Shown: positions 1 through 56,614, counted from the first letter of the stretch. The stretch: DNA of 64,000 nucleotides from Desulfosudaceae bacterium (GCA_963674745.2 CAXXDV010000003.1:352001-416000), one strand, 5' to 3'. Numbers and translations are program-made. Notes: generated by a model from the sequence alone, not told the origin.

Positions 1-3000
1 CGTGACGGTCTCCGCTTTCCCAACAGCGGACGCTTTGTCGTCGATATTTTCTGTTTTTAACTGGTCCCCGATGACGGATTCCAGGCCGATTACAATATCG
101 TTCAGCGTGACGCTTCTCCCCAGGCGTTCCCGGCCGGCATCGGTCATCTGGATATGGTGTTCCGCCAGTTTCTCCTCAAAGTGGGCCAACACCTCCATCC
201 GTTTGATGGAATCAATACCCAGTTCCGCGTCAATCTCCTGATCCAGTTCCAGCATATCGGCGGGATAGCCGGTCAGGTCGCCGACAATGGAGATCAGGGT
301 GGCTTTGATGTCAAACGGGGCGACGGTTGTGACGGCCGGGGCTGATGCGGCCACCTTACCGGCCGGTGGCCCCTGGGCTTCCGATACCAGGGCCTGCAGG
401 CCGTCCAGCAGGTCCGCCAGCGTATGACTGGCCACCAGGCTTTCCATTCTGCTTTCCTGAAGCGTGACGCCATGCTGCTCCAGGGCGGTCTCCAACTCCA
501 TCATGGCCTGCATCCGTTTGATGGAATCGATGCCCAGGTCGGCGTCAATTTCCTGGTCCAGTTCCAGCATTTCCACGGGGTAGCCGGTGCAGTCGCTGAC
601 GATTTCCAGCAGAATGGTTTTCACATCAAGGGATGGGATGCGTTCCTCTTTTTCCGGAACGGTTGTTTTCGTTGCCGAAAGGTCCGGGGAAGCGACCGGT
701 GGAACACTGAAGTCCGGTGGCCGGTCGGAAATGGGATGGTTTATATCCGGTTGAACCATTTCCGGCATGATTCCGTTTACTGAAACAGGGCCGATGGCGG
801 TCTCGTATCCCCGGCATTCCCCGAGCCCGGCGCGGTCTGACGATCCGCCGTTCAGCCAGGCTGTCATAACCGCTTTTTGTGTGTCCAGAAACTGACTCAT
901 TAAATCCTGAAATCTGGCAATCATCATATCATCCGTGGTCGCCGGATTCCTGTTTGTCTCTATGGGCACGGACTGGCCCTGTTGATCGGTTGGTGAAGGC
1001 ATGGTCTGGCTGTTCCACTCCCATTCAAAGGTATTAATGTTATTAAAATCCGTCGGGTTTTCGGTGTTCCCGGTTTCTGTCTCTTGCGCTTCATCGACAA
1101 AACCGACCGGTCGCGGAACAACGCGTTCCGGGGGCGGTTGGTCGGCGGGGCGAACCGTCCCGCTGCCGATGATAAAGCGGGCTTCAGGAATATCGGATTT
1201 TTCGTCAGAAAGCGTATCCTGCCGGTCAAATCGCCGGCAATCACGCCCCGCGAACAGCCGCTCCAGTTGCAACTCAACGCCGGCCACAAATATGACCGCC
1301 AGGGCATGCTGCAGTTCTGTTACGTCCGCCCTGCCTTTTTTGTTTGTGGCTACAGCCTGGTGTGGTTTGTCTTTAAGAATGGCTTTGATCAAATTGGTCA
1401 GAACGCTGTTGGCGCCGACCTCTATGAAAATCCGAGCGCCGGCTTCATACATGGCTGAAATTTCCGCTGAGAAGCGAACCGGGCTGACCAGTTGTCCGGC
1501 CATCAGTTTTTTGATTTCCGGCCCGTTTTCGGGGAAAGGGGCGGCAATGGTATTTGAAAAAACCGGTCTTTGAGGGACGCCAAAATCAATATTTTCCAGG
1601 AAATTTTCCAGTTTTGACTTCGCGGCGTCAACGAGGGGGCTATGAAAGGCGCATGCCACGGGAATTGTTTTGCATGGTATTTTCTCTTGTTCGAGTTTTT
1701 CCATAGCCGCTTTGACCCCGGCCCGGCTGCCGCTGATGACGGTCTGTGACGGTGCATTCAGGTTGGCGATCCAGACCCGATCCAGGTCTTTGAGCAGTGG
1801 GATGACTTCCGACTCAGATGCTTTGACCGCGGCCATGGTGCCGGGCTCTGACCCGGACGATTCGAGGATAAAACGCCCCCGGGCTTCGGAAATCCGGGCC
1901 AGGTCTTTTTCTGCCAGAACCCCTGCCGCAAACAGGGCGGGATATTCGCCGTAACTGTGACCGGCCGTCATATCGGGAACGACGCCCAGAGTCGTCAGCA
2001 ACTCATGCATAGCCGTGTCCACCGCGCCCATGGCAGCCTGGGTAACGTCGGCCCGGGTCAAGGCGGATTCATCGGCTTTTTTTTCTTTGTCGGTAAAATA
2101 AATCGGTGGATTAATAATTCGGCTCAGACCGGCGGGAAAAGCTTTTGCAAGATGCCGGTCGAAACGTTCCAGCGTTTCCCGGACCAGGGGAAAGGACAGG
2201 GCCAGATCGTTGAGCATACCGGGATACTGGGATCCCTGACCGGGATAAACAAAGGCGATTTTGCCTGTTTCCGAAACCGGCCTGTAGCTGAAATAGACAC
2301 CCGGGATGTGTCGGTCCCGGGTGTCTTGTTCGGCCAACAACATCAGGGCTGTCTTGATCTTGTTTTTCAGATCGTCTGTGGAGGAAGCTACGACGGCCAG
2401 GCGGACATTGTTCTCCGCCGATGGGGTCACGGCCATGGTGTAGGCCAGGTCTTTCAGGGGTGTTTCCGGATATCGGGCCAGCTGATTTTCCAGGTATTGG
2501 ATACGGCCGGTAACCGCCCCGGTTGTTTTCCCCTGAAAAACAAAAAGTTCCGATTCCCATTCCGGCTTGAAAGCCGTTTTTCCGGCGGATCCTGTCGGCC
2601 CGGAATATTCCTCCAGTACCGCGTGGAAGTTTGTTCCGCCGAAGCCGAAGGCACTGACGCCGGCCCGCCGGGGCCGGCCGGCGGTGGCAAACCAGGGCCG
2701 GGCCCGGGTGTTCAGGTATAAGGGATTGTCTTCACCGGTCAGATCGGGGACCGGTTTTTCCAGGCCTGCCGTCGGCGGGATCACCTTGTGGTGCAGGGCC
2801 AGAACGGTTTTGACCAGTGAAGCGATACCGGCCGCGCATTTGGTATGGCCGATCATTGATTTGATCGACCCTACGGCACAGCTGCGGGGGGGCATATCCG
2901 TCCCCGAGAAAAAGGCGTGCAGGGCGGCGGCTTCGGATTTGTCACCTGCGACTGTACTGGTGCCATGGGCTTCGATCAAAGAGATGGTTGCCGGTTCGAT

Positions 3001-3981
3001 AGCGGCCCTTTCATAGGCCCGGGCCAGGGCCGCGATCTGTCCCTCCGGCTTGGGAACGGTCAACCCCTTGCCGCGCCCGTCACTGGAAGCCCCGACGGAC
3101 TTAATAACGGCGTAAATCGGGTCGCCATCTCTTTCGGCGTCGGCCAGGCGCTTTAAGATAACCGTGGCCACCCCCTCTCCCAGAACAATACCATCGGCGT
3201 CCTGATCAAAGGGGATGCTTTTGCCGGTCGCGGACAGGGCGCCGACTTTGGAAAAACAGGTGTAGGCATAGGGGCTCATCAGCGTGTCCGTACCACCCAC
3301 GATGACCATATCGCTCTCCCCGGTCGCAAGCTCCAGGATACCCGTTCGCAGGGCGGCCAGGGCCGAGGCACAGGCCGCGTCAATGGTACAATTGGTGCCG
3401 CCGAGATTGAACCGGTCGGCGATCCGGCCGGCGGCAATATTGGTGATGATGCCGGTAAAGGCGTCTTCGCGCCATTCAGGGACCGCCGTACCGAGGCCGG
3501 ATAGAATATGGTCGGCACTTTCCCCGAAAAACCGGGGGACTTGCGATCGGAAACTGTATTGCTGACCCAGATCACCTTCGCCGGCGCCTGCGCCGACGAA
3601 CACGGATGTCCGGCTCCGGTTAAATTCGCGGTCCATGTAACCGGCGTCGTCCAGGGCCAGCCGGGTGCTTTCCAGGACCAGCAGCTGTGCTGTTTCGATG
3701 AATTTTAAAGCCTTGGGCGGGATGCCGAATTGAAGGGGGTTAAAAGGAATATCCGGCAGAAATGCGCCCCACTTGGATACAATACGGTCTTTCCCAGTGG
3801 GGGCGGTGTCGAAATAATACCGACTGTCCCATCTTTGAGGCGGGATCTCCGTAATCGATACAGTCCCTTTGACAATATTCTGCCAATAGGACTTTAAATC
3901 CGGTGCATCCGGAAAAAATCCGGCCATTCCGATAACAGCTATGTCAGTTACGGCACTGACATTTTGATCCGCGTGTGTCAT
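1..3981 (-). CDS. Iterative type I polyketide/PUFA synthase, PfaA-like (KS-AT-ACP-ACP...), partial, runs off the left edge
   Basis: Segments translated by hand from ATG 3981 (MTHADQNVSAVTDIAVIGMAGFFPDAP...): KS motifs DAACAS, EAHGTST, KSMIGHTKCAAG; AT motifs GHSYGE and AFHS; two tandem ACPs (TGYPVEMLELDQEIDADLGIDSIKR near 500-610, TGYPADMLELDQEIDAELGIDSIKR near 190-295). Absent from the ORF track, probably because it has no stop within the window. Confidence 0.93.
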   Translation of the reverse strand, partial: MTHADQNVSAVTDIAVIGMAGFFPDAPDLKSYWQNIVKGTVSITEIPPQRWDSRYYFDTAPTGKDRIVSKWGAFLPDIPFNPLQFGIPPKALKFIETAQLLVLESTRLALDDAGYMDREFNRSRTSVFVGAGAGEGDLGQQYSFRSQVPRFFGESADHILSGLGTAVPEWREDAFTGIITNIAAGRIADRFNLGGTNCTIDAACASALAALRTGILELATGESDMVIVGGTDTLMSPYAYTCFSKVGALSATGKSIPFDQDADGIVLGEGVATVILKRLADAERDGDPIYAVIKSVGASSDGRGKGLTVPKPEGQIAALARAYERAAIEPATISLIEAHGTSTVAGDKSEAAALHAFFSGTDMPPRSCAVGSIKSMIGHTKCAAGIASLVKTVLALHHKVIPPTAGLEKPVPDLTGEDNPLYLNTRARPWFATAGRPRRAGVSAFGFGGTNFHAVLEEYSGPTGSAGKTAFKPEWESELFVFQGKTTGAVTGRIQYLENQLARYPETPLKDLAYTMAVTPSAENNVRLAVVASSTDDLKNKIKTALMLLAEQDTRDRHIPGVYFSYRPVSETGKIAFVYPGQGSQYPGMLNDLALSFPLVRETLERFDRHLAKAFPAGLSRIINPPIYFTDKEKKADESALTRADVTQAAMGAVDTAMHELLTTLGVVPDMTAGHSYGEYPALFAAGVLAEKDLARISEARGRFILESSGSEPGTMAAVKASESEVIPLLKDLDRVWIANLNAPSQTVISGSRAGVKAAMEKLEQEKIPCKTIPVACAFHSPLVDAAKSKLENFLENIDFGVPQRPVFSNTIAAPFPENGPEIKKLMAGQLVSPVRFSAEISAMYEAGARIFIEVGANSVLTNLIKAILKDKPHQAVATNKKGRADVTELQHALAVIFVAGVELQLERLFAGRDCRRFDRQDTLSDEKSDIPEARFIIGSGTVRPADQPPPERVVPRPVGFVDEAQETETGNTENPTDFNNINTFEWEWNSQTMPSPTDQQGQSVPIETNRNPATTDDMMIARFQDLMSQFLDTQKAVMTAWLNGGSSDRAGLGECRGYETAIGPVSVNGIMPEMVQPDINHPISDRPPDFSVPPVASPDLSATKTTVPEKEERIPSLDVKTILLEIVSDCTGYPVEMLELDQEIDADLGIDSIKRMQAMMELETALEQHGVTLQESRMESLVASHTLADLLDGLQALVSEAQGPPAGKVAASAPAVTTVAPFDIKATLISIVGDLTGYPADMLELDQEIDAELGIDSIKRMEVLAHFEEKLAEHHIQMTDAGRERLGRSVTLNDIVIGLESVIGDQLKTENIDDKASAVGKAETVT

Positions 3982-4194
3982 TTACCCCCCCCAACTTCTC
4001 ATGAGAGTATTGATGATAACTGTGGATAAAACTGTTGCTTGCATATGCCGATATCAAGTGGTCATTTTTTTAAGAGCGCTTTTGATACCGAACTATTTTT
4101 AAGAAATCCCCTTTTTCTCCCCCATGGCGATCGATGACAGTATCATCAACCCCATTCTCCGATATGAACAAAAACCATAAAAAACGAACGGTTA

Positions 4195-4243
4195 AATAAA
4201 ACAAAAAGCCGGGCTGCCCGTTTTTAATCAGGGCAACCCGGCT
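4195..4243 (-). terminator. Intrinsic terminator (riboswitch expression platform) in the PKS leader
   Basis: Minus strand AGCCGGGTTGCCC-loop-GGGCAGCCCGGCT followed by TTTTTGTTTT; the 5' arm is the 3' end of the aptamer. Confidence 0.85.
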
Positions 4244-4310
4244 GTCTTTTGTTTAAAGATCCTGGGCTTTCCGTCATCCGGTCATCCGGATGTTGGCTTT
4301 TTCCTTAATT
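4224..4310 (-). ncRNA. c-di-GMP-I (GEMM-I) class cyclic dinucleotide riboswitch
   Basis: Minus strand AAGGAAAAAGCCAAC-ATCCGG-ATGA-CCGGAT-GACGGAAAGCCCAGGATCT...AGACAGCCGGGTTGCC has the GEMM-I hallmarks (P2 hairpin, GACGGAAAGCC junction, AGACAGCCGGGUUGCC 3' end) known from deltaproteobacterial examples. Confidence 0.85.
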
Positions 4311-4343
4311 TTGTACATTTGTACAGTTGTTATCTTTTTTGCA

Positions 4344-4373
4344 AACAGCGTTATTGTTAACGATAACGCTGTT
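4344..4373. promoter_or_regulatory. 30-bp near-perfect palindrome between the putative promoter and the riboswitch
   Basis: AACAGCGTTATTGTTAACGATAACGCTGTT (one mismatch); a minus-strand TTGACA lies at 4417-4422. Confidence 0.5.
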
Positions 4374-4780
4374 CCGCCTGATAACGATTTTTTAATTAAG
4401 TGTATTAAAAATCATTTGTCAAGAAAAAAATTGGACTGCCCAACATATTTTAGTTTTTCATATAACTGTTTCGATTTAAAAAGAAAATTGTTTTTCTTTT
4501 CCTTTTCAGGCACATCCTTCAAGGCTTTAAATCCGAACCGCACAGCCTTGTTCATGCGCTTTTATGGCGTGGCACGGGTCGGGACAGATGTCGAATAACA
4601 TTATGGAAAACAGTCGCTGATGATGTTTTCGAATCTGGACTATATAGTCAATTTATTAAAATGGTTTTTTATTTATTTTTTTTTATATCCCGTATATGGG
4701 TTTATGGGTGACTACGGTCCGGGCCGAGAAGTTTTTTACACGATTCGCATCCGTACAAAGACGGAGGTAAAACCGGCGTT

Positions 4781-5974
4781 ATGTTGGCGGTAGCAGACAG
4801 AAAAGTTTTTGCGACGCTTTTTTTTTCCATATTCAGTGCGGTGATGGGGGTGGGCATCGTCGTGCCGCTGATCCCCATTTATGCAGAAAGCCTGGGGGCC
4901 GGCGGTCTTTATATCGGTTTTGTTTTTGCCTCTTTTTCATTGTCCCGGTCTTTTCTGCTGCCGCTGTTCGGCAAGCTGTCCGATAAGACCGGGCGTAAAC
5001 CTTATATTTTTTTAGGGCTCTTCGGCTACACCCTGGTTTCGGTCGCATTTATCTTTTCCGATTCGGTCCAGGGCCTGATTGTTATCCGTTTTTTCCAGGG
5101 CATTGCCTCGGCCATGGTGATGCCCGTGGTTCAGGCTTATGTGGGTGATATCACACCTGAAAACATGGAAGGCCGGGTTATGGGCATGTTTAACATGTCC
5201 ATGTTCATCGGCCTGAGTATCGGCCCTTTGGCCGGCGGATTTATCAGTGATGCCCTGGGCATGCGGGGCGCGTTTCTGTGTATGGGCGTATTGACGTTTA
5301 CCGGGGCCTTGATGAGTCTGTTGTTCCTTCCCCCGGTGAAGAAAGAACCGGCCGGCCGCCGTGCTAAACAGTCACCGGCGGGCTGGGGCGTGCTTTTGAA
5401 GGATCCGGCATTATGGGCGATTCTTTCCCTTCGTTTTGCTCATGTTTTCTGCATCGGCGTTGTCTGGTGCTTTCTACCGCTGATGTCCAAGAATTTCGGG
5501 TTGTCGACAGGCACCATTGGCTTTTTGATCATGCTGGGCGTGTTCATGAGCGGTATCCTCCAGGTCCCCATGGGAAGGGTCGCCGATCAGGTGGATAAAA
5601 AAAAGATGGCCCTGCTGGGGGCGCTGATTGTGGCCCTGGATATGCTCGGCTATCAATGGGCCCGGGGGTTCTGGGGACTTCTGGCCGCCAGTATCGGTTT
5701 CGGCCTGGGCGGCGGTATTGCCATGCCGCCCTTGATGGCCATGGCCGTCATCAAAGGCGCCCGGACCGGAGCCATGGGGTCGGTCATGTCCCTGCTTACG
5801 CTGGCACACAGCCTGGGCATGCTTTTCGGTGCCCTGAGCGCCGGAATCCTGATGGATTTGTATGGCGTCCGGCAAGGCTTTTTGCTGGCGGCCATGTTTA
5901 TGCTGATGGGGGCGGTCTTTTTCGGGACCTGCTCATATCTTTATAAACGCCGGGCACAAAACGATTTACCTTGA
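4781..5974 (+). CDS. MFS transporter (DHA1-like)
   Basis: 397 aa, about 12 hydrophobic segments, motif A GKLSDKTGRK and its repeat GRVADQVDKK; RBS GGAGG. Confidence 0.92.
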   Translation: MLAVADRKVFATLFFSIFSAVMGVGIVVPLIPIYAESLGAGGLYIGFVFASFSLSRSFLLPLFGKLSDKTGRKPYIFLGLFGYTLVSVAFIFSDSVQGLIVIRFFQGIASAMVMPVVQAYVGDITPENMEGRVMGMFNMSMFIGLSIGPLAGGFISDALGMRGAFLCMGVLTFTGALMSLLFLPPVKKEPAGRRAKQSPAGWGVLLKDPALWAILSLRFAHVFCIGVVWCFLPLMSKNFGLSTGTIGFLIMLGVFMSGILQVPMGRVADQVDKKKMALLGALIVALDMLGYQWARGFWGLLAASIGFGLGGGIAMPPLMAMAVIKGARTGAMGSVMSLLTLAHSLGMLFGALSAGILMDLYGVRQGFLLAAMFMLMGAVFFGTCSYLYKRRAQNDLP

Positions 5975-6106
5975 TTGCGCCTGATTGACACCTTTATCGG
6001 GTTTCTATAAGATGTCGGGGCAATAAGCATAAGGGGCACCTCTAAAGAGTGATGTCGTCGGTTATCGCGCTGTGTCGAAAATGAATTTGAATTGCGGATT
6101 GCTTAT

Positions 6107-6826
6107 ATGTGGAAAATGGTCATGCTCATGATGGCGTCTTTTATGCTGATGCCCCCTCCGGACGGCCGGGCCGGTGATTCTCCGGACGAATGTGTTATCC
6201 TTCTGCACGGATTGGCCCGGACAGAGCGCTCGATGGAAAAGCTCGGCCGGCACCTTGCTGCCCAAGGCTACGGCGTTGTTAATGCCGGCTATCCCTCTCG
6301 AACGGCAACTGTTCAGGAACTGGCCGAAGAAACCATTCCATCGGCTGTGGCCGGGTGCCGTGACAACGGCGCCAAAAAGATCCATTTTGTCACTCATTCC
6401 ATGGGCGGTATCCTGGTCAGATATTATCTTGCTCATAACAGCCTGCCTGAACTCGGGCGGGTGGTCATGCTGGCACCGCCCAACAACGGCAGCCCGGTGG
6501 TTGATAAACTGAAAAACAATTTTACGTTCCAGTGGCTTAACGGCCCGGCCGGGCAGCAACTGGGCACCGGCGAAAGCAGCCTGCCGAAAAGCCTGGGCCC
6601 GGTCGATTTCGACCTGGGTGTCATTGCCGGGGACCGGTCGGTTAACCTGTTGTTGTCCCGGATGATCCCCGGCCCTGATGACGGCAAGGTGGCGGTGGCC
6701 GATACACGGGTCGAAGGCATGAAGGACCACATTGTCATTCATGCCACGCATCCGTTTATTATGAAAAACGCACAGGTCATTGACCAGGCACTCTTTTTTT
6801 TGAAGAAGGGGGCTTTCAAAAGATAG
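6107..6826 (+). CDS. Secreted alpha/beta hydrolase (lipase/esterase-like)
   Basis: LLHGL oxyanion region, THSMGG nucleophile elbow, DDGKV Asp and ATHPF His; signal-like N-terminus. Start uncertain. Confidence 0.85.
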   Translation: MWKMVMLMMASFMLMPPPDGRAGDSPDECVILLHGLARTERSMEKLGRHLAAQGYGVVNAGYPSRTATVQELAEETIPSAVAGCRDNGAKKIHFVTHSMGGILVRYYLAHNSLPELGRVVMLAPPNNGSPVVDKLKNNFTFQWLNGPAGQQLGTGESSLPKSLGPVDFDLGVIAGDRSVNLLLSRMIPGPDDGKVAVADTRVEGMKDHIVIHATHPFIMKNAQVIDQALFFLKKGAFKR

Positions 6827-6840
6827 GGGGAGGGCCGGGT

Positions 6841-7356
6841 ATGAATCGAAAAGCAATCAATATCAGCTGGGCCTTTATTGCCCTGGGTATGCTGGGGGTA
6901 TTTTATTCAAACCTGAATCCCGATGCCTTCTCCCGCAACATGGTTACGGATTATTTTAAAAATAATAAATCGATACTCCAACCGTATTTAAACGCTGATG
7001 CCATATATGACAATTACGCCAAAAGCGGAAATGTCTTTGTCGGGTTTTCCGGTTTTGATCTTTCAGATGAAATCCAGATGGGCATGATGGAAACGTTTTA
7101 TTTTCGTGGCGCTTATTCTTTATATCCCAGAAAAGTTTATATCGCGGACAAGGACAAGGTAGTCAATAATGCCCGGGATATGGCACGGCATAACGTCATG
7201 CCGTCGATTGATATGATCCAGAACAACCGGATAGAATACGTTCTGTTTTTAAAAAATGGATCGGATGACGGCGGTGTCGGGCTGAATGTATATACGGCTC
7301 CGAGATTTATTGAAAAGTTAAATAAAGTGCAGATAAAGCAAGGTATTGAGCGCTGA
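6841..7356 (+). CDS. Hypothetical membrane-anchored protein
   Basis: 171 aa ORF with an N-terminal hydrophobic helix, in operon-like spacing with its neighbours. Confidence 0.65.
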   Translation: MNRKAINISWAFIALGMLGVFYSNLNPDAFSRNMVTDYFKNNKSILQPYLNADAIYDNYAKSGNVFVGFSGFDLSDEIQMGMMETFYFRGAYSLYPRKVYIADKDKVVNNARDMARHNVMPSIDMIQNNRIEYVLFLKNGSDDGGVGLNVYTAPRFIEKLNKVQIKQGIER

Positions 7357-7358
7357 CC

Positions 7359-8726
7359 ATGACGCCTGTTTACGCATTAACATATATGATGTTGATTGTC
7401 TTTTTCGGCTACGTCCTGCTGGCTTTTATCTTCAAGGGTGAAAGCCTTCCGTTCTCAGAGTGTCTCGGCTTGTCCCTCGCTGTCGGTGCCGGCGCCATGG
7501 GCAGCCTGCTTTTCGGGATATCCCTGTGCGGCTTTTCGCCTTCGAGAATGGTGTTTTTATTGATTATCATACTTGTTGGCTGCCTTTACTTGATCGGGGC
7601 AAAATATCAATGGCTGGTGAAAATACAGCCTGTGGATTCAAAAGGCGATGTGGTTAATCTTGCCAACGTGATGGTGTTCTGCTCCTTTTCCCTTTTGATG
7701 GCCGGCATCGCCATCCACGCTCTCGGGTTTCCGTTGTATGAATGGGATGCCTTCAGTATATGGGGGCTCAAGGCCAAGGTGTTGTTCTATGAAAGCCTGG
7801 CCCATAAACCGGATTATTTTTATGACCTTTCTTTAAGTTTCAGTCACCTGGACTACCCCCTGGGTGTTCCCTTTCTTATTTCAGGTTTTTACGGGTTACT
7901 GGGCGAGGTAAATGATACCTGGGCAAAAATCATATTCCCGTTTTATTACCTGTCGCTGGCCCTGATTTTATACAATGGCTTTCAATGGAAACTTGATAAA
8001 CTCAAGGCGGCCTGTCTGGTATTGATCACACTGGGTGCCGGGGGCTTTGTCCGGTGGGCGGGTGCCGGTACGGCTGACCTGGCCCTGACGGTATTCTACG
8101 GGTGTGGTGTCTGTTATCTGTTAAGATACCTGGACGATCAAAAGCGCTGCCACCTGATTCTGACCGTCCTGTTTGCATATTTTTGCACTTTTACCAAAAA
8201 CGAAGGTATGGTGTTAGGCTGTTTCATCGTTTTGGTGATGTTCCTGTTTAATCTCCTTAACAGGGAAAAATCAGACTGGAAACAATTCATCGCCTGTACC
8301 GGTGTGTTTCTGGGCCTCCTCCTGCTCTGGTTGTATTGGCGTCGTGATCTGCCGCGAACCAGTGAAGATTACGCGCAACTTGCAGGGATCAAGCTTTTGC
8401 TGAATAATTTTTACCGGCTTAAAATTATATTACCCGCGTTTATCGAGCAATTGTATGCTTTCAAGCTCTGGGGCGGGATATGGGTGCTCCTGGCAGTATT
8501 CGCAATTCTTGGCAGAAAGGCCTTCAAACATCGATATGTGAAAGCCGCCTGGCTTTTGCTGGTGCTGCATGCAGGGCTCTATATGTTTGTTTTTATCATT
8601 ACCCCCTGGGATGTCCGGGAACTGCTTGACGTTTCACTGGACAGATTGATACTGCATTTCATACCCGTCACCGGCTTGCTTATCGGCCTTCACTGGGCAC
8701 GGATATCGTCTGACAGCTCAGGCTAA
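7359..8726 (+). CDS. Polytopic membrane protein, GT-C fold glycosyltransferase-like
   Basis: 455 aa, many TM helices; WDAFSIWGLKAK, HLDYPLG and TKNEG motifs resemble ArnT/PMT-like GT-C proteins. Confidence 0.65.
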   Translation: MTPVYALTYMMLIVFFGYVLLAFIFKGESLPFSECLGLSLAVGAGAMGSLLFGISLCGFSPSRMVFLLIIILVGCLYLIGAKYQWLVKIQPVDSKGDVVNLANVMVFCSFSLLMAGIAIHALGFPLYEWDAFSIWGLKAKVLFYESLAHKPDYFYDLSLSFSHLDYPLGVPFLISGFYGLLGEVNDTWAKIIFPFYYLSLALILYNGFQWKLDKLKAACLVLITLGAGGFVRWAGAGTADLALTVFYGCGVCYLLRYLDDQKRCHLILTVLFAYFCTFTKNEGMVLGCFIVLVMFLFNLLNREKSDWKQFIACTGVFLGLLLLWLYWRRDLPRTSEDYAQLAGIKLLLNNFYRLKIILPAFIEQLYAFKLWGGIWVLLAVFAILGRKAFKHRYVKAAWLLLVLHAGLYMFVFIITPWDVRELLDVSLDRLILHFIPVTGLLIGLHWARISSDSSG

Positions 8727-12085: not shown

Positions 12086-13348
12086 ATGGGAACCATGAAC
12101 AACGACAATATTTTATTCGAACCCCTGACTTTGGGCAAACTGACCCTTTCCGGCCGGGTCTGCAAAACCGCCACGTCAGAAACCCGGGCCTCCGAGGACG
12201 GGTTCGTCACCGATGAACTGCTCGAATTTTACGAGCCCATCGCCAAAGCCGGAACACCCCTGATCATTACCGGTAACCTCTATGTAACCGACGAAGGCAA
12301 ATCCACCTACCGCATGTGCGGAGTTGACGCGCCGGACAAGATCCCGGGATTGAAACGATGGGCGGATCTGGCCCATGAGCATGGTTCCCTGCTGTTCGGC
12401 CAGATCAACCATTGCGGCCGCCAGGTGTTTGCCCGGGCCATGGGGCTGGATTCAGCGGTTTCCGCCTCGAATGTAACCGAAAAGGTCATGGGCACCAAAC
12501 CCCGCCCCCTGACCGGGGATGAAATCAAGGAGACAATCAAACGGTTTGCCGACTCCGCCCAATACTGCATGGAAGCCGGTTTTGACGGAGTCCAGATCCA
12601 TGCCGGCCACGGTTACCTGATCAACCAGTTTCTTTCGCCCTACACCAATCGCCGCAAAGACGATTACGGCGGCAGTTTTGACAAATGTATGCGCTTTTTA
12701 CTGGAGGTCTACCGGGCCATACGCGAACGCGTGGGCGATGATTATCCCCTGATCGTCAAGATCGGCGGTGCCGACGCACTGACCGGCAGGGCCGGCCTGA
12801 AAACATCCGAACTGGTCGAAGTGGCCCGGGTTCTTCAGGAAGAAGGGCTGGACGGGGTCGAGATTACGGTCGGTCACTATGAATCCGGGTTCCCCATGAT
12901 CCGGGGCACATTCGGTGATTTCTTCAAAGGGCTCATGAAAGAGGGCATCGGTTTTCAGATGACCCCATTCAGAAAAGCGGGCGTGACCCTGTTCCGGCAT
13001 CCCATATCATGGATGTTTAATGTGATCTGGCCCCATTACGAAGGTTTCAACACCCACTATTCCCTGGCATTCAAGAAAAAACTGTCCATTCCCGTCATCT
13101 GCGTGGGCGGTTTTCTGACCCGTCAGGCTGCCACCGACGCCATTAACAGCGGGCTCTGCGACGCCGTTTCCGTGGGCCGGGCCATGATCGCCGATCCCTA
13201 TCTGTACAAGCATTTTAAAGAAGGCATCACCGGCCCGGAATGCACCTTCTGCAACGGCTGTATTGCCCGGGCCGGCCGCCTGCCGGTGGATTGTTATGAC
13301 ATGGAGGTTAAAGAAGCCCAGAAAAAAATGCTGGCGATGGCTTCATAA
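12086..13348 (+). CDS. NADH:flavin oxidoreductase (Old Yellow Enzyme family)
   Basis: QINHCGRQ, AGFDGVQIHAGHGYLINQFLSPYTNRRKDDYGG, GRAMIADP; C-terminal CTFCNGC. Confidence 0.93.
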   Translation: MGTMNNDNILFEPLTLGKLTLSGRVCKTATSETRASEDGFVTDELLEFYEPIAKAGTPLIITGNLYVTDEGKSTYRMCGVDAPDKIPGLKRWADLAHEHGSLLFGQINHCGRQVFARAMGLDSAVSASNVTEKVMGTKPRPLTGDEIKETIKRFADSAQYCMEAGFDGVQIHAGHGYLINQFLSPYTNRRKDDYGGSFDKCMRFLLEVYRAIRERVGDDYPLIVKIGGADALTGRAGLKTSELVEVARVLQEEGLDGVEITVGHYESGFPMIRGTFGDFFKGLMKEGIGFQMTPFRKAGVTLFRHPISWMFNVIWPHYEGFNTHYSLAFKKKLSIPVICVGGFLTRQAATDAINSGLCDAVSVGRAMIADPYLYKHFKEGITGPECTFCNGCIARAGRLPVDCYDMEVKEAQKKMLAMAS

Positions 13349-13350
13349 AT

Positions 13351-13430
13351 GTAGGGGCGACCCGCCGGTCGCCCGAATCACTGGTGCCACAATCAACCTC
13401 GTCATCCTCTGGCTTGACCAGGGGATCCAG
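13351..13430. repeat. GTAG-type REP plus CGTC-type palindromic repeat
   Basis: GTAGGGGCGACCCGCCGGTCGCCC (13351-13374) and CGTCATCCTCTGGCTTGACCAGGGGATCCAG (13400-13430). Confidence 0.65.
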
Positions 13431-55480: not shown

Positions 55481-56386
55481 TTAAGGCTGTGTAATGAGAA
55501 TCGAATTCGGGTCCTGTTTCTGAATGGTATCTATGACCATTTTAATTTTTCCCAGGATGTTGTCGACCGTAATCCCGTCGCCGGTGGCATCAACAATACC
55601 AAGGCTGATGGTGATGTTGATGGATTCATCATCATAAGAAAAACTGCTTTTCTTCACCAGTTCCTGAAGCTGTTCAGCAACGTTCAGTGCCGACTGGGGT
55701 GTTGTCTCCGGAAGGATAAGGCTGAATTCTTCACCGTTGTACCGGGCTACCGTGTCCACGATGCGCAGGCGGTTGATAAACAGGGAGGCCAGTTGGATTA
55801 AGACATTGTCTCCGGCCTGGGAGCCGCATTTTTCGTTAACCTGTTTGAAATTATCAATATCAATTGCAATCAGGGACAGGGGCCGTTTATAGCGTTTATG
55901 GCGTTCGATTTCATGTTTGAGTTTTGCTTCAAAATATCGCCGGTTATATATTTCCGTCAGGGTGTCCCGGGTGTTGATGTCCAGCAGTTTGGCCTCGTAG
56001 GCGGCCACTTCCGTCGCATCCTGGATGATCATATATATGTATTCGATCTCTTTGTCTTTATTATAAAGCGGTCCCAGGGTGCAATTCTGCTGCATATATT
56101 TGAATTCCGGGTCAAAATGGTGAACCGGTGATATGGGGATGATATAATTATGTAATTTTTGAGAAAAAAAGGAGAAGTTGCCGAAGCTGAAAACAGATTT
56201 GCAGTTTTTGATAAACCAGTTTTTATTGAGATTCGGAAAATAATCAAAAAGCGGTGCGCCTACAATTTCTTCAGCAGGGATCCTGGTATGCATCTCCAGC
56301 CATCTATTCCACTTTTGGACATTCAACTCACTGTCCAGAATAATAATGCCAAGATTCACCATATCAAACAGTTGTGAGAAGAACAT
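55481..56386 (-). CDS. PAS + degenerate GGDEF domain protein
   Basis: DTLTEIYNRR, DIDNFKQVN, RIVD I-site, active site NGEEF. Confidence 0.88.
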   Translation of the reverse strand: MFFSQLFDMVNLGIIILDSELNVQKWNRWLEMHTRIPAEEIVGAPLFDYFPNLNKNWFIKNCKSVFSFGNFSFFSQKLHNYIIPISPVHHFDPEFKYMQQNCTLGPLYNKDKEIEYIYMIIQDATEVAAYEAKLLDINTRDTLTEIYNRRYFEAKLKHEIERHKRYKRPLSLIAIDIDNFKQVNEKCGSQAGDNVLIQLASLFINRLRIVDTVARYNGEEFSLILPETTPQSALNVAEQLQELVKKSSFSYDDESINITISLGIVDATGDGITVDNILGKIKMVIDTIQKQDPNSILITQP

Positions 56387-56527: not shown

Positions 56528-56614
56528 TGGTGCCGAAGGGGAGATTTGAACTCCCACGAGGGAACCCTCACTAGACCCTGAACCTAGCGCGTCTACCAAT
56601 TCCGCCACTTCGGC
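56528..56614 (-). tRNA. tRNA-Leu(CAG)
   Basis: GCCGAAGTGGCGGAATTGGTAGACGCG-CTAGG-TTCAGGG-TCTAG, long variable arm, GGGAGTTCAAATCTCCC-CTTCGGCACCA; 87 nt. Confidence 0.96.

Follow-up and report, generated by a model that had tools for sequence, protein, structure and literature searches.

The RNA encoded at positions 4307-4229 (minus strand) of the 64,000-nucleotide stretch of DNA analysed here (the window) is a c-di-GMP-I (GEMM-I) aptamer whose 3' strand is also the left arm of an intrinsic terminator, and it probably works as a riboswitch of that class, placed in the leader of a cluster of seven genes headed by a PfaA-like type I synthase gene. The ON design itself is not new; what the locus adds is a new target, a PfaA-like lipid/polyketide synthase, for a known switch whose mechanism is otherwise ordinary.

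The aptamer and its terminator

The sequence-only reading had placed a GEMM-I aptamer on the minus strand at about 4310-4224. In a cmscan search of the whole window, the covariance model RF01051 matched 4307-4229 over its full length (model positions 1-87 of 87) with 48.9 bits, above the gathering cut-off of 35 bits, with E-values of 1.6e-6 in the window and 3.2e-8 against the whole genome. By computation, membership of this RNA in the c-di-GMP-I class is thus confirmed. Two matches in the window reached the gathering score, RF01051 being one of them. The RF01051 alignment puts the equivalents of the Vc2 ligand-contact residues G20, A47 and C92, whose roles are those given in PMC5888326 and PMC6140456, in model columns 11, 38 and 83, and here they are G (4297), A (4270) and C (4233). 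The linker between the hairpins reads GACGG-AAA-GCC in the same alignment, and RNAalifold recovered both hairpins from ten local GEMM-I RNAs, a small set of related members, with 19 pairs, nine of them with compensatory changes.

The aptamer is nevertheless atypical. Hairpin 1 is capped by AUGA rather than a GNRA loop and is followed by the AAA linker, hairpin 2 is short and lacks the tetraloop receptor, the closing helix carries an A-G mismatch, and the score ranks only fourth among the six GEMM-I RNAs of the genome. A GNRA loop with its receptor is a typical feature of the class, not a universal one: as described in PMC1950547, the hairpin-1 loop is 'almost always' GNRA and the receptor occurs in about half of the RNAs. 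Two other genomes, G001 and G005, have AAAA and UAUGAA as the corresponding loops ahead of their orthologous synthase genes, again with no receptor.

The terminator (4243-4195, minus strand) is formed by pairing of the left arm AGCCGGGUUGCCC (4243-4231) with the right arm GGGCAGCCCGGCU (4219-4207) over 13 pairs, including a single G-U pair, that enclose a loop of 11 nt (4230-4220). The hairpin has a predicted energy of -27.3 kcal/mol and runs into a U-run (4206-4195), with U at eight of the nine bases directly after it. A simple terminator scan did not list the hairpin at 4243-4207 because its loop exceeds the tool's 8-nt limit. As had been noticed from the sequence, 4243-4231 belongs to both elements: the left arm spans RF01051 model columns 73-85 and overlaps the 3' strand of hairpin 2, takes in the C92 equivalent and reaches into the closing helix, so that aptamer and terminator have 11-13 nt in common. 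Because of this overlap, a ligand-stabilised fold and termination exclude each other, which is the logic of an ON switch, and the predicted folds agree with the earlier proposal that ligand binding blocks the terminator. The 141-nt leader folds at -49.7 kcal/mol (z = -5.8; 0 of 200 shuffles as stable), and when the right arm is blocked the aptamer shape is obtained at -26.0 kcal/mol, compared with -48.8 kcal/mol for the terminator fold. ON switches under kinetic control usually have such a thermodynamically dominant terminator. The arrangement is that of a terminator-based ligand-ON expression platform, and this function is predicted for it.

Synthase cluster, leader and orthologous loci

The synthase gene runs on the minus strand from 3981 to 1 and leaves the window, its remaining 2876 nt lying beyond the left edge. 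The part within the window encodes KS, AT and two PP-binding domains, and the full protein of 2285 aa has the order KS-AT-ACP-ACP-KR-DH, with a PS-DH domain and two ACP motifs. It matches the TIGR02813 omega_3_PfaA model with 1194.8 bits (cut-off 1010.1) and has the multidomain composition of the PfaA family (KS-MAT-ACPn-KR), so the KS-AT-ACP-ACP synthase of the sequence-only reading is borne out. The synthase heads a conserved cluster of seven genes, which also encodes a second KS-AT-PS-DH protein, a separate AT protein, a sulfotransferase (211 aa) and an alpha/beta hydrolase (294 aa) from adjoining genes, a PF01663 phosphodiesterase-family enzyme, and a conserved 661-aa protein that has no known family. 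Gene 2 starts 9 nt behind the synthase gene and is followed by a 301-nt gap. In the CurM/Ols olefin-forming module, a sulfotransferase and an alpha/beta-fold thioesterase act on the last beta-hydroxyacyl-ACP. The sulfotransferase of the cluster matched two solved structures, both aryl sulfotransferases (E 0.003), and the best 60 of 298 matches of the hydrolase were generic esterases or epoxide hydrolases; none of these chains was labelled CurM or Ols. The domain search found no enoyl-reductase or FabA-type family in any of the ten proteins scanned. The cluster does not match a canonical Pfa PUFA set, since such sets are defined by pfaC (KS-CLF-two FabA-type DH), the enoyl reductase pfaD and 4-6 tandem ACPs (PMC3098273), and it has no PfaD and no FabA-type dehydratase pair among its seven genes, and two ACPs.

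The spacer between terminator and start codon (4194-3982, minus strand) is 213 nt long, with a G-rich ribosome-binding site at its end (GGGGGGGG-TAA-ATG). The distance from the aptamer's 3' end to the synthase ATG is 247 nt, close to the 240 nt estimated earlier, and that from the end of the U-run is about 213 nt. Upstream of the aptamer, a promoter-like -35 hexamer, TTGACA (4422-4417, minus strand), follows a T-run, and the three leaders with a riboswitch all have this combination at the corresponding place. The region 17-18 nt downstream of it is a poor -10 (TTAATT/TAATTA) and a sigma-70 scan did not call the site, its sole minus-strand match lying further upstream at 4474-4447; both points count against the presumed promoter. 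Between this site and the aptamer lies a perfect 11-nt inverted repeat, AACAGCGTTAT-N8-ATAACGCTGTT (4373-4344, minus strand), which may form a hairpin in the leader or serve as an operator for a protein. At the equivalent place, the leaders of G005 and G001 have looser AACG/ACAG...CTGT repeats. No gene on the same strand occurs for about 1.8 kb upstream.

On the plus strand, the intergenic region is bordered by a divergent MFS transporter gene (4781-5974), the first of a group that continues with genes for an alpha/beta hydrolase (6092-6826), a protein of no assigned family (6841-7356) and a PMT_2-like membrane protein (7359-8726). This group belongs to the surroundings of the switch rather than to the switch itself. 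The MFS gene is kept beside the riboswitch-bearing loci (76% identity in G005, 73% in G001) and was not found beside the riboswitch-less loci fetched.

The order aptamer, terminator, synthase recurs in G001 and G005, where the GEMM-I RNA scores 52.0 and 41.7 bits and the terminator has predicted energies of -20.3 and -27.0 kcal/mol, with the same overlap of aptamer and terminator arm. Together with the genome studied here (G000), switch-bearing synthase loci span two genera. Across the three leaders, identity is 84-87% in the aptamer-terminator unit, compared with 59-64% in the upstream leader and 36-54% in the spacer. The riboswitch is present at three of eight orthologous clusters, and no GEMM-I RNA was found at the other five, even at E <= 1 where this was tested; control by the switch is therefore a lineage-specific add-on. 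The host is a bacterium of the sulfate-reducer type.

We propose that the transcript begins within the intergenic region 4308-4780, and probably close to the conserved TTGACA hexamer. In the ligand-free state, the freshly made 3' strand of the aptamer (4243-4231) would pair with 4219-4207, and the 13-bp hairpin with its U-run would halt RNA polymerase ahead of the synthase gene. With c-di-GMP bound, 4243-4231 would be held in hairpin 2, the binding pocket and the closing helix, so that the terminator is blocked and polymerase continues into the synthase gene and, at a minimum, gene 2, which starts 9 nt after it; read-through past the 301-nt gap is less certain. The product would be a specialised lipid or polyketide, possibly sulfated, made at high c-di-GMP together with the large secreted repeat proteins under the genome's other GEMM-I switches. 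As the sequence-only reading inferred, the switch may serve the sessile state.

Ligand, alternative readings and a possible regulon

The ligand is most likely c-di-GMP, judging from the G at position 20 (4297), which the RF01051 alignment shows as the earlier reading had it. G at this position is associated with c-di-GMP selectivity and A with cGAMP sensors, as set out in PMC6140456 and PMC5888326. Assignment to GEMM-Ib, the 3',3'-cGAMP riboswitches, was rejected, as these require A at the equivalent of Vc2 G20 (A14 of Gs1761). The junction GACGGAAAG had been likened to that of a subgroup including cGAMP sensors; this likeness did not hold up as a guide, since GACGGAAAG is near-universal among the GEMM-I RNAs seen in the bacterial family, all of them with G20, and says nothing about cGAMP. 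GGDEF domains are encoded at 22 places in the genome, a point in favour of the c-di-GMP switch. One of its proteins, a GAF-GGDEF protein, carries the Hypr signature (described in PMC6456294), with Ser at the position of GacA Ser348 together with GGDEF; among solved GGDEF structures, the GacA Hypr domain 6D9M is its best match (108.5 bits), and its gene lies 1.7 kb from a sister riboswitch of the same subclass. These features of the Hypr-type gene favour a switch that senses 3',3'-cGAMP, or both dinucleotides, instead of c-di-GMP alone, a reading that we regard as the least likely of those considered here. Against it, all six of the genome's GEMM-I RNAs and every family relative examined have G at position 20, known cGAMP sensors have A20, and wild-type Vc2 (G20) is reported in PMC6140456 to bind cGAMP at only 10 uM. 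Moreover, G001 and G005 have the synthase riboswitch, yet no Hypr-like gene was found in either of them, while G002 has that gene and no synthase. In the GAF-GGDEF protein itself, Val stands at the Asn339 equivalent.

The departures from the GEMM consensus could also mean that the aptamer has decayed and lost ligand binding, with the terminator acting constitutively or as a protein-controlled attenuator. The non-GNRA loop, its drift among the three leaders, the missing receptor, the weak closing helix, and the 31.8 bits of the sister RNA in the genome, below the Rfam cut-off, would fit such decay. We hold it to be very improbable, as the aptamer scores 14 bits over the cut-off, all six subclass members keep the ligand-contact positions and both junctions unchanged while differing in the loops and the terminator's right arm, and roughly half of GEMM RNAs are described as lacking the receptor (PMC1950547). 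It is quite doubtful, too, that the cluster is transcribed mainly from a promoter of its own in the 213-nt spacer, with riboswitch and terminator yielding a short leader RNA or minor read-through. The spacer is long (385 nt in G001) and poorly conserved, one weak sigma-70-like match occurs in each of the G005 and G001 spacers, and the orthologous clusters of G006, G009 and G012 do without any riboswitch. Those two matches, however, score 9 of 12, near shuffle expectation, and their positions are not conserved; the scan found no sigma-70-like match on the minus strand of the G000 spacer (3982-4194) and no minus-strand promoter-like site inside the synthase cluster. A conserved aptamer-terminator unit before the same gene in three genomes would be hard to explain if nothing downstream were controlled. 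We favour the c-di-GMP-responsive switch.

Four of the genome's six GEMM-I RNAs are canonical switches and stand before genes for large secreted proteins of kinds typical of c-di-GMP targets (PKD, FG-GAP, Ig-like or transglutaminase), and the family's other GEMM-I RNAs likewise precede secreted surface proteins. The synthase riboswitch belongs to a local subclass in which GNRA loop and receptor are both missing and the ends, AGGAAAAAGCYA and GCCGGGWUGCCCUGA, are invariant. All six copies found precede lipid-type enzymes: the PfaA-like cluster, which has its own sulfotransferase and hydrolase, in three genomes, a secreted lipase-like hydrolase in two, and, in G000, an unlinked operon for a membrane sulfotransferase and a hydrolase, which the sister riboswitch precedes. 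Whether this lineage-specific subclass forms a dedicated RNA regulon for making and tailoring a specialised lipid is a tentative idea that we consider unlikely. The subclass was defined after its members were seen, and the six copies probably represent only three independent loci in related genomes. If the idea is true, a cyclic dinucleotide would turn on production of a polyketide-lipid, sulfated or exported, that forms part of the biofilm surface or matrix. A bolder version would have the subclass drifted to another ligand, for example the product of the neighbouring Hypr-type GAF-GGDEF protein.

Comparison with known systems

The ligand-ON layout was described in 2007 for 78 of 322 GEMM RNAs (Weinberg et al., 2007; PMC1950547). 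The platform there is the same, with the terminator's 5' arm set against the aptamer's 3' strand so that ligand is predicted to raise expression; the mechanism here is identical and only the downstream genes differ. 'Polyketide' and 'fatty acid' do not occur in the main text of that paper. The earlier reading presented this regulatory target as not known to have been described, and in the literature searched we likewise found no paper linking the GEMM-I class to a PKS or pfaA.

Vc2 of Vibrio cholerae (RF01051) shares the two-hairpin fold joined by AAA, the G20, A47 and C92 equivalents and the 5' regulatory position. Here, AUGA replaces GNRA, the receptor is missing, the GC pair at the base of hairpin 1 is flipped (GACGG, not GACGC), and the switch precedes a type I synthase gene. 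The Geobacter GEMM-Ib riboswitches, from a related lineage, have the same fold and are terminator-based and ligand-ON, as PMC6456294 showed with RNA-seq of a gacA deletion and with mutants of the terminators. According to that source, these RNAs (pgcA, omcAHG, omcST and pilMNOP leaders) have A20, sense cGAMP and control cytochrome, pilus and polysaccharide genes, whereas here position 20 is G and the target is a synthase.

The cluster has the PfaA-type KS-AT-ACP-KR protein, the second KS-AT-DH protein and the separate AT protein in common with Pfa synthases and with the deltaproteobacterial 'secondary lipid synthase' clusters, whose products are uncharacterised and which are reported from Desulfatibacillum, Desulfococcus, Desulfobacterium and Geobacter (Shulse and Allen, 2011; PMC3098273); riboswitches are not mentioned in that paper. 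It differs in the ACP count and missing components noted above, and in its additional sulfotransferase, alpha/beta hydrolase, PF01663 enzyme and 661-aa protein. Finally, c-di-GMP is described as controlling specialised metabolism in Streptomyces through the protein effector BldD (PMC7005675). The same second messenger would gate secondary metabolites in both cases; in the scheme proposed here, an RNA within the leader of the synthase gene itself would sense it, without a protein in between.

An atypical GEMM-I aptamer and its terminator

A cmscan search of the whole 64-kb window against Rfam 15, with the gathering score as threshold, gave two matches, one to a tRNA and one to the c-di-GMP-I family (RF01051). 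The latter lies at 4307-4229 on the minus strand, upstream of a PfaA-like synthase gene, scores 48.9 bits (cut-off 35, E 1.6e-6) and covers 87 of 87 model positions, which bears out the GEMM-I aptamer proposed in the sequence-only reading. In the model alignment, G 4297, A 4270 and C 4233 are the equivalents of the ligand-contacting G20, A47 and C92 of Vc2, the Vibrio cholerae type example, whose roles in the Vc2 structure are described in passages of PMC5888326 and PMC6140456; the G at 4297 is as first read. The aptamer is an atypical GEMM-I: hairpin 1 (CAUCCGG/CCGGAUG) is capped by AUGA and has no GNRA tetraloop, hairpin 2 is short and without a tetraloop receptor, and the linker between them is the usual AAA. 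When 10 GEMM-I RNAs of the family (six from this genome and four from relatives) were folded together with RNAalifold, both hairpins were recovered with 19 pairs, nine of which show two-sided changes that preserve pairing. The RNA upstream of the synthase is confirmed as a real GEMM-I riboswitch.

An intrinsic terminator with 13 pairs and an 11-nt loop is formed on the same minus strand by AGCCGGGUUGCCC (left arm, 4243-4231) and GGGCAGCCCGGCU (right arm, 4219-4207). Its hairpin energy is -27.3 kcal/mol and eight of the nine bases directly after it are U; our simple terminator scan left it unlisted because the loop exceeds the scan's 8-nt limit. The folding energy of the 141-nt leader is -49.7 kcal/mol (z -5.8), a value that none of 200 shuffles reached. 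The left arm occupies model columns 73-85, which span the 3' strand of hairpin 2, the C92 equivalent and the beginning of the closing helix. Blocking the right arm makes the leader adopt the aptamer shape at -26.0 kcal/mol, as compared with -48.8 kcal/mol for the terminator fold. The two folds are therefore mutually exclusive, with the terminator as the default, and the ON logic drawn earlier from the shared 3' end of the aptamer and left arm of the terminator is supported by computation.

The presumed promoter of this leader has a good -35 and a poor -10 element, and the site was not called by the promoter scan. Between the promoter-like site and the aptamer we also observed a perfect 11-nt inverted repeat, AACAGCGTTAT-N8-ATAACGCTGTT (4344-4373, minus strand), with looser counterparts in the leaders of two orthologous synthases; an operator or a hairpin in the leader are possible roles. 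From the terminator to the ATG the spacer is long and lacks conservation, with one weak promoter-like match in each of the corresponding spacers of two relatives, G005 and G001.

The synthase cluster and the distribution of its switch

The window corresponds to C3:352001-416000 (C, contig) of this genome, G000. The synthase ORF (3981..1, minus strand) continues past the window edge and encodes 2285 aa in the genome, with KS, AT, two ACPs, KR and a PS-type DH; it passes the PfaA subfamily model TIGR02813 with 1194.8 bits (curated cut-off 1010.1). Gene 2 of the cluster, encoding a 1511-aa KS-AT-DH protein, lies 9 nt 3' of the synthase gene on the same strand. Beyond a 301-nt gap, and still on this strand, genes 3 to 7 encode a PF01663 phosphodiesterase-family protein, an alpha/beta hydrolase, a 211-aa sulfotransferase, a 661-aa protein that falls into no Pfam or NCBIfam family (L007:7238-9223 in the extracted locus, G000:C3:339238-341223 in the genome, minus strand) and a 510-aa acyltransferase, and a same-strand RND efflux trio follows. 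Within the cluster there is no minus-strand promoter-like site, and terminator-like matches are at shuffle level. The 661-aa protein is 68-70% identical in three other genomes, and every one of its atlas neighbours is labelled ‘hypothetical protein’; the first ~70 codons of its gene, which lie over the sulfotransferase gene, are unconserved, so its true start is probably later.

Synteny of the first seven genes, with gene order unchanged, extends to three other genomes (G006, G009 and G012), where the tailoring enzymes are 70-82% and the synthases 57-64% identical to those of G000; the RND genes were not found beside these three clusters. The cluster has no gene for an enoyl reductase or a FabA-type dehydratase, so that by the definition of PMC3098273 it does not encode a canonical PUFA synthase. 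We also looked for sequence support for CurM-like olefin chemistry and found none. The cluster is a candidate pathway for a new lipid, possibly sulfated.

Orthologues of the synthase, searched for with its first 500 aa, were found in 6 of 401 genomes of the same order, G000 counted (68-77% identity, E <= 1e-200). All belong to one family, in which five of the 12 other genomes searched carry an orthologue, and none is present in a 99%-complete member of the same genus. RF01051 has matches in 29 of the 41 relatives searched. One lies ~430 nt upstream of the orthologous synthase of G001 (same genus, 52.0 bits) and another ~220 nt upstream of that of G005 (another genus, 41.7 bits); the synthase contigs of G006, G009 and G012 gave no match. 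A species-genome collection held five synthase loci with 69-76% identity, three of which are the places in G005, G006 and G009, and the two additional loci have no GEMM-I even at E <= 1. Nor did four riboswitch-less loci match any other riboswitch class in Rfam at that E-value. The motif that the earlier reading would seek in orthologous leaders, aptamer plus terminator, is thus present at three of eight distinct orthologous loci and the other five have no GEMM-I, so that most orthologous clusters are without the switch.

Among the three switch-bearing leaders, identity is 84-87% over aptamer and terminator, 59-64% from the promoter-like site to the aptamer and 36-54% over the spacer to the ATG. 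All three keep the overlap of terminator and aptamer, with differing right arms. They also share the divergent MFS transporter gene, which is kept only beside them; in the window it belongs to a plus-strand group (4781-8726) with genes for a lipase/thioesterase-like alpha/beta hydrolase, a 171-aa unknown protein and a PMT_2-like membrane glycosyltransferase-family protein. The riboswitch-less loci, in contrast, have another upstream gene and another leader, and the switch was therefore gained or lost with a rearrangement of the upstream region.

At ~130 more distant PfaA-like loci from other phyla no GEMM-I was found, a result based on an nhmmer profile of eight local aptamers, which is less sensitive to divergent GEMM-I RNAs and may miss some, run over 146 loci (819,024 nt), and on Rfam for 20 of the 146. 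The profile matched only the G000 locus and its G001 and G005 counterparts, with one further hit at E 0.52; the only Rfam match was the G005 locus. A metagenome scan with an aptamer-derived pattern gave no stretches, and a metagenome protein scan gave 54 loci, all with <= 57% identity and so no further orthologues. Over the sequences searched, the synthase switch is confined to a small clade of Desulfobacterales-type bacteria.

Ligand and related GEMM-I RNAs

According to passages of PMC6140456, G at position 20 marks c-di-GMP sensors and A marks cGAMP sensors (GEMM-Ib), and wild-type Vc2 (G20) bound c-di-GMP at picomolar concentration and cGAMP at 10 uM only. Position 20 is G in all six GEMM-I RNAs of G000 and in every family GEMM-I RNA read. 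The sequence-only reading had likened the GACGGAAAG junction to that of a subgroup including cGAMP sensors. This likeness does not carry over to the ligand: the junction is common to nearly all GEMM-I RNAs read in the family, those of G000 included, and with G at position 20 throughout it is therefore a lineage trait and no hint of cGAMP. A source of cGAMP is nevertheless conceivable among the 22 places with GGDEF domains in G000. A 334-aa GAF-GGDEF protein (G000:C1:1003562-1004563, L160:1862-2866, plus strand) has Ser at the position of GacA Ser348, where canonical cyclases have Asp, an intact GGDEF and Val as the equivalent of Asn339; Ser for Asp with an intact GGDEF is the signature of Hypr GGDEF enzymes, which make cGAMP (PMC6456294). 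Its best solved GGDEF relative is the GacA domain 6D9M of that study (108.5 bits; best canonical cyclase 87.5). Of 40 relatives, 7 have orthologues with S/T at the Ser348 position and GGDE[FY], but we found no phyletic link to the synthase riboswitch, since none was detected in G001 or G005 and one is present in G002, which has no synthase. G000 also has no A20-type GEMM-I as a cGAMP receiver. The Hypr-like protein would keep a small chance for cGAMP alive, without supporting it, and c-di-GMP is the ligand that G20 points to. A degenerate GGDEF domain was also seen in the window (55514-55969, minus strand), with no motif by GGDEF regex and Ser for the His of the conserved GH (NEKCGSQAGD); its neighbour is a tRNA (56531-56614, minus strand) whose variable arm is long.

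G000 has six GEMM-I matches, five above the cut-off, and a terminator follows each. Four are canonical (C3:66575-66655, C3:904596-904675, C1:1388025-1388103 and C1:641517-641599) and precede large secreted repeat proteins (PKD, beta-propeller, FG-GAP, Ig-like) or a transglutaminase-like protein. In these four a separate terminator hairpin comes 15-20 nt later, its left arm repeats the AGCCGG of the aptamer, and the 5' strand of hairpin 2 would be an alternative partner for its right arm; the direction of these switches, ON or OFF, cannot readily be told from sequence. The sixth, a sister riboswitch (G000:C1:1001790-1001864, L006:1501-1575, minus strand; 31.8 bits, below the cut-off), has a non-GNRA loop, a directly overlapping terminator and invariant ends in common with the synthase switch. 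Downstream of it, also on the minus strand, lie genes for a 402-aa membrane sulfotransferase (L159:5529-6737; PF13469, solved relatives 2zq5 and 2z6v) and a 331-aa alpha/beta hydrolase (L159:4589-5584).

Across 401 genomes, a pattern made from the invariant ends of this subclass has six matches, in 5 genomes: three synthase leaders, the G000 sulfotransferase operon and two sites before a secreted lipase-like hydrolase (G008 and G011). First ORFs behind other family GEMM-I RNAs (19 scanned) encode transglutaminase-like, Lcl_C/PKD, FG-GAP, outer-membrane efflux, DUF6160, pilin-like and no-known-family proteins. A tie between the subclass, defined post hoc on related genomes, and lipid-type enzymes is no more than suggestive. 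Paralogy of the sulfotransferase and hydrolase of the cluster with the sister-riboswitch pair was rejected (superfamily-level similarity only), as was orthology of the divergent hydrolase (6092-6826) with the G008 hydrolase (27% identity). Single leaders with four GEMM-I aptamers in tandem were seen in G006 (L177, C13, ~13043-13390) and G009 (L185, C30, ~524-873), where they precede small secreted DUF6160 proteins.

Comparison with known c-di-GMP riboswitches

Known outputs of c-di-GMP riboswitches are motility, adhesion, pili, cytochromes and signalling genes. Altogether, the RNA described here is most likely, from its predicted folds and G20, a c-di-GMP-dependent transcriptional ON switch of a PfaA-like cluster whose product is possibly a sulfated lipid. 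Judged by titles and abstract starts, the papers returned by our searches showed no link between c-di-GMP or a GEMM riboswitch and a polyketide synthase or pfaA, as the earlier claim of an undescribed target would have it, and supplementary gene lists could hold an earlier listing; ‘polyketide’ and ‘fatty acid’ are absent from the main text of PMC1950547, and ‘riboswitch’ from PMC3098273. If true, such direct RNA control of a type I synthase would extend the outputs of c-di-GMP to the making of specialised lipids or polyketides. It would also offer a handle, through higher c-di-GMP or deletion of the terminator, on an otherwise silent cluster in hard-to-grow relatives of sulfate reducers, and it flags a conserved seven-gene PfaA-like cluster with a sulfotransferase, a hydrolase and a phosphodiesterase-family enzyme for discovery of a possibly sulfated lipid.

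The expression platform itself is exactly one already known from Weinberg et al., 2007 (PMC1950547), since a terminator over the 3' side of hairpin 2 was reported there for 78 of 322 GEMM RNAs and ligand was proposed to raise expression. Geobacter GEMM-Ib switches work in the same terminator-based ON mode in vivo (PMC6456294). Aptamer class, ligand and expression platform are all known, and the synthase as target is the new part; the mechanism being a textbook one, the gain is in biology and natural-product discovery rather than in RNA mechanism.
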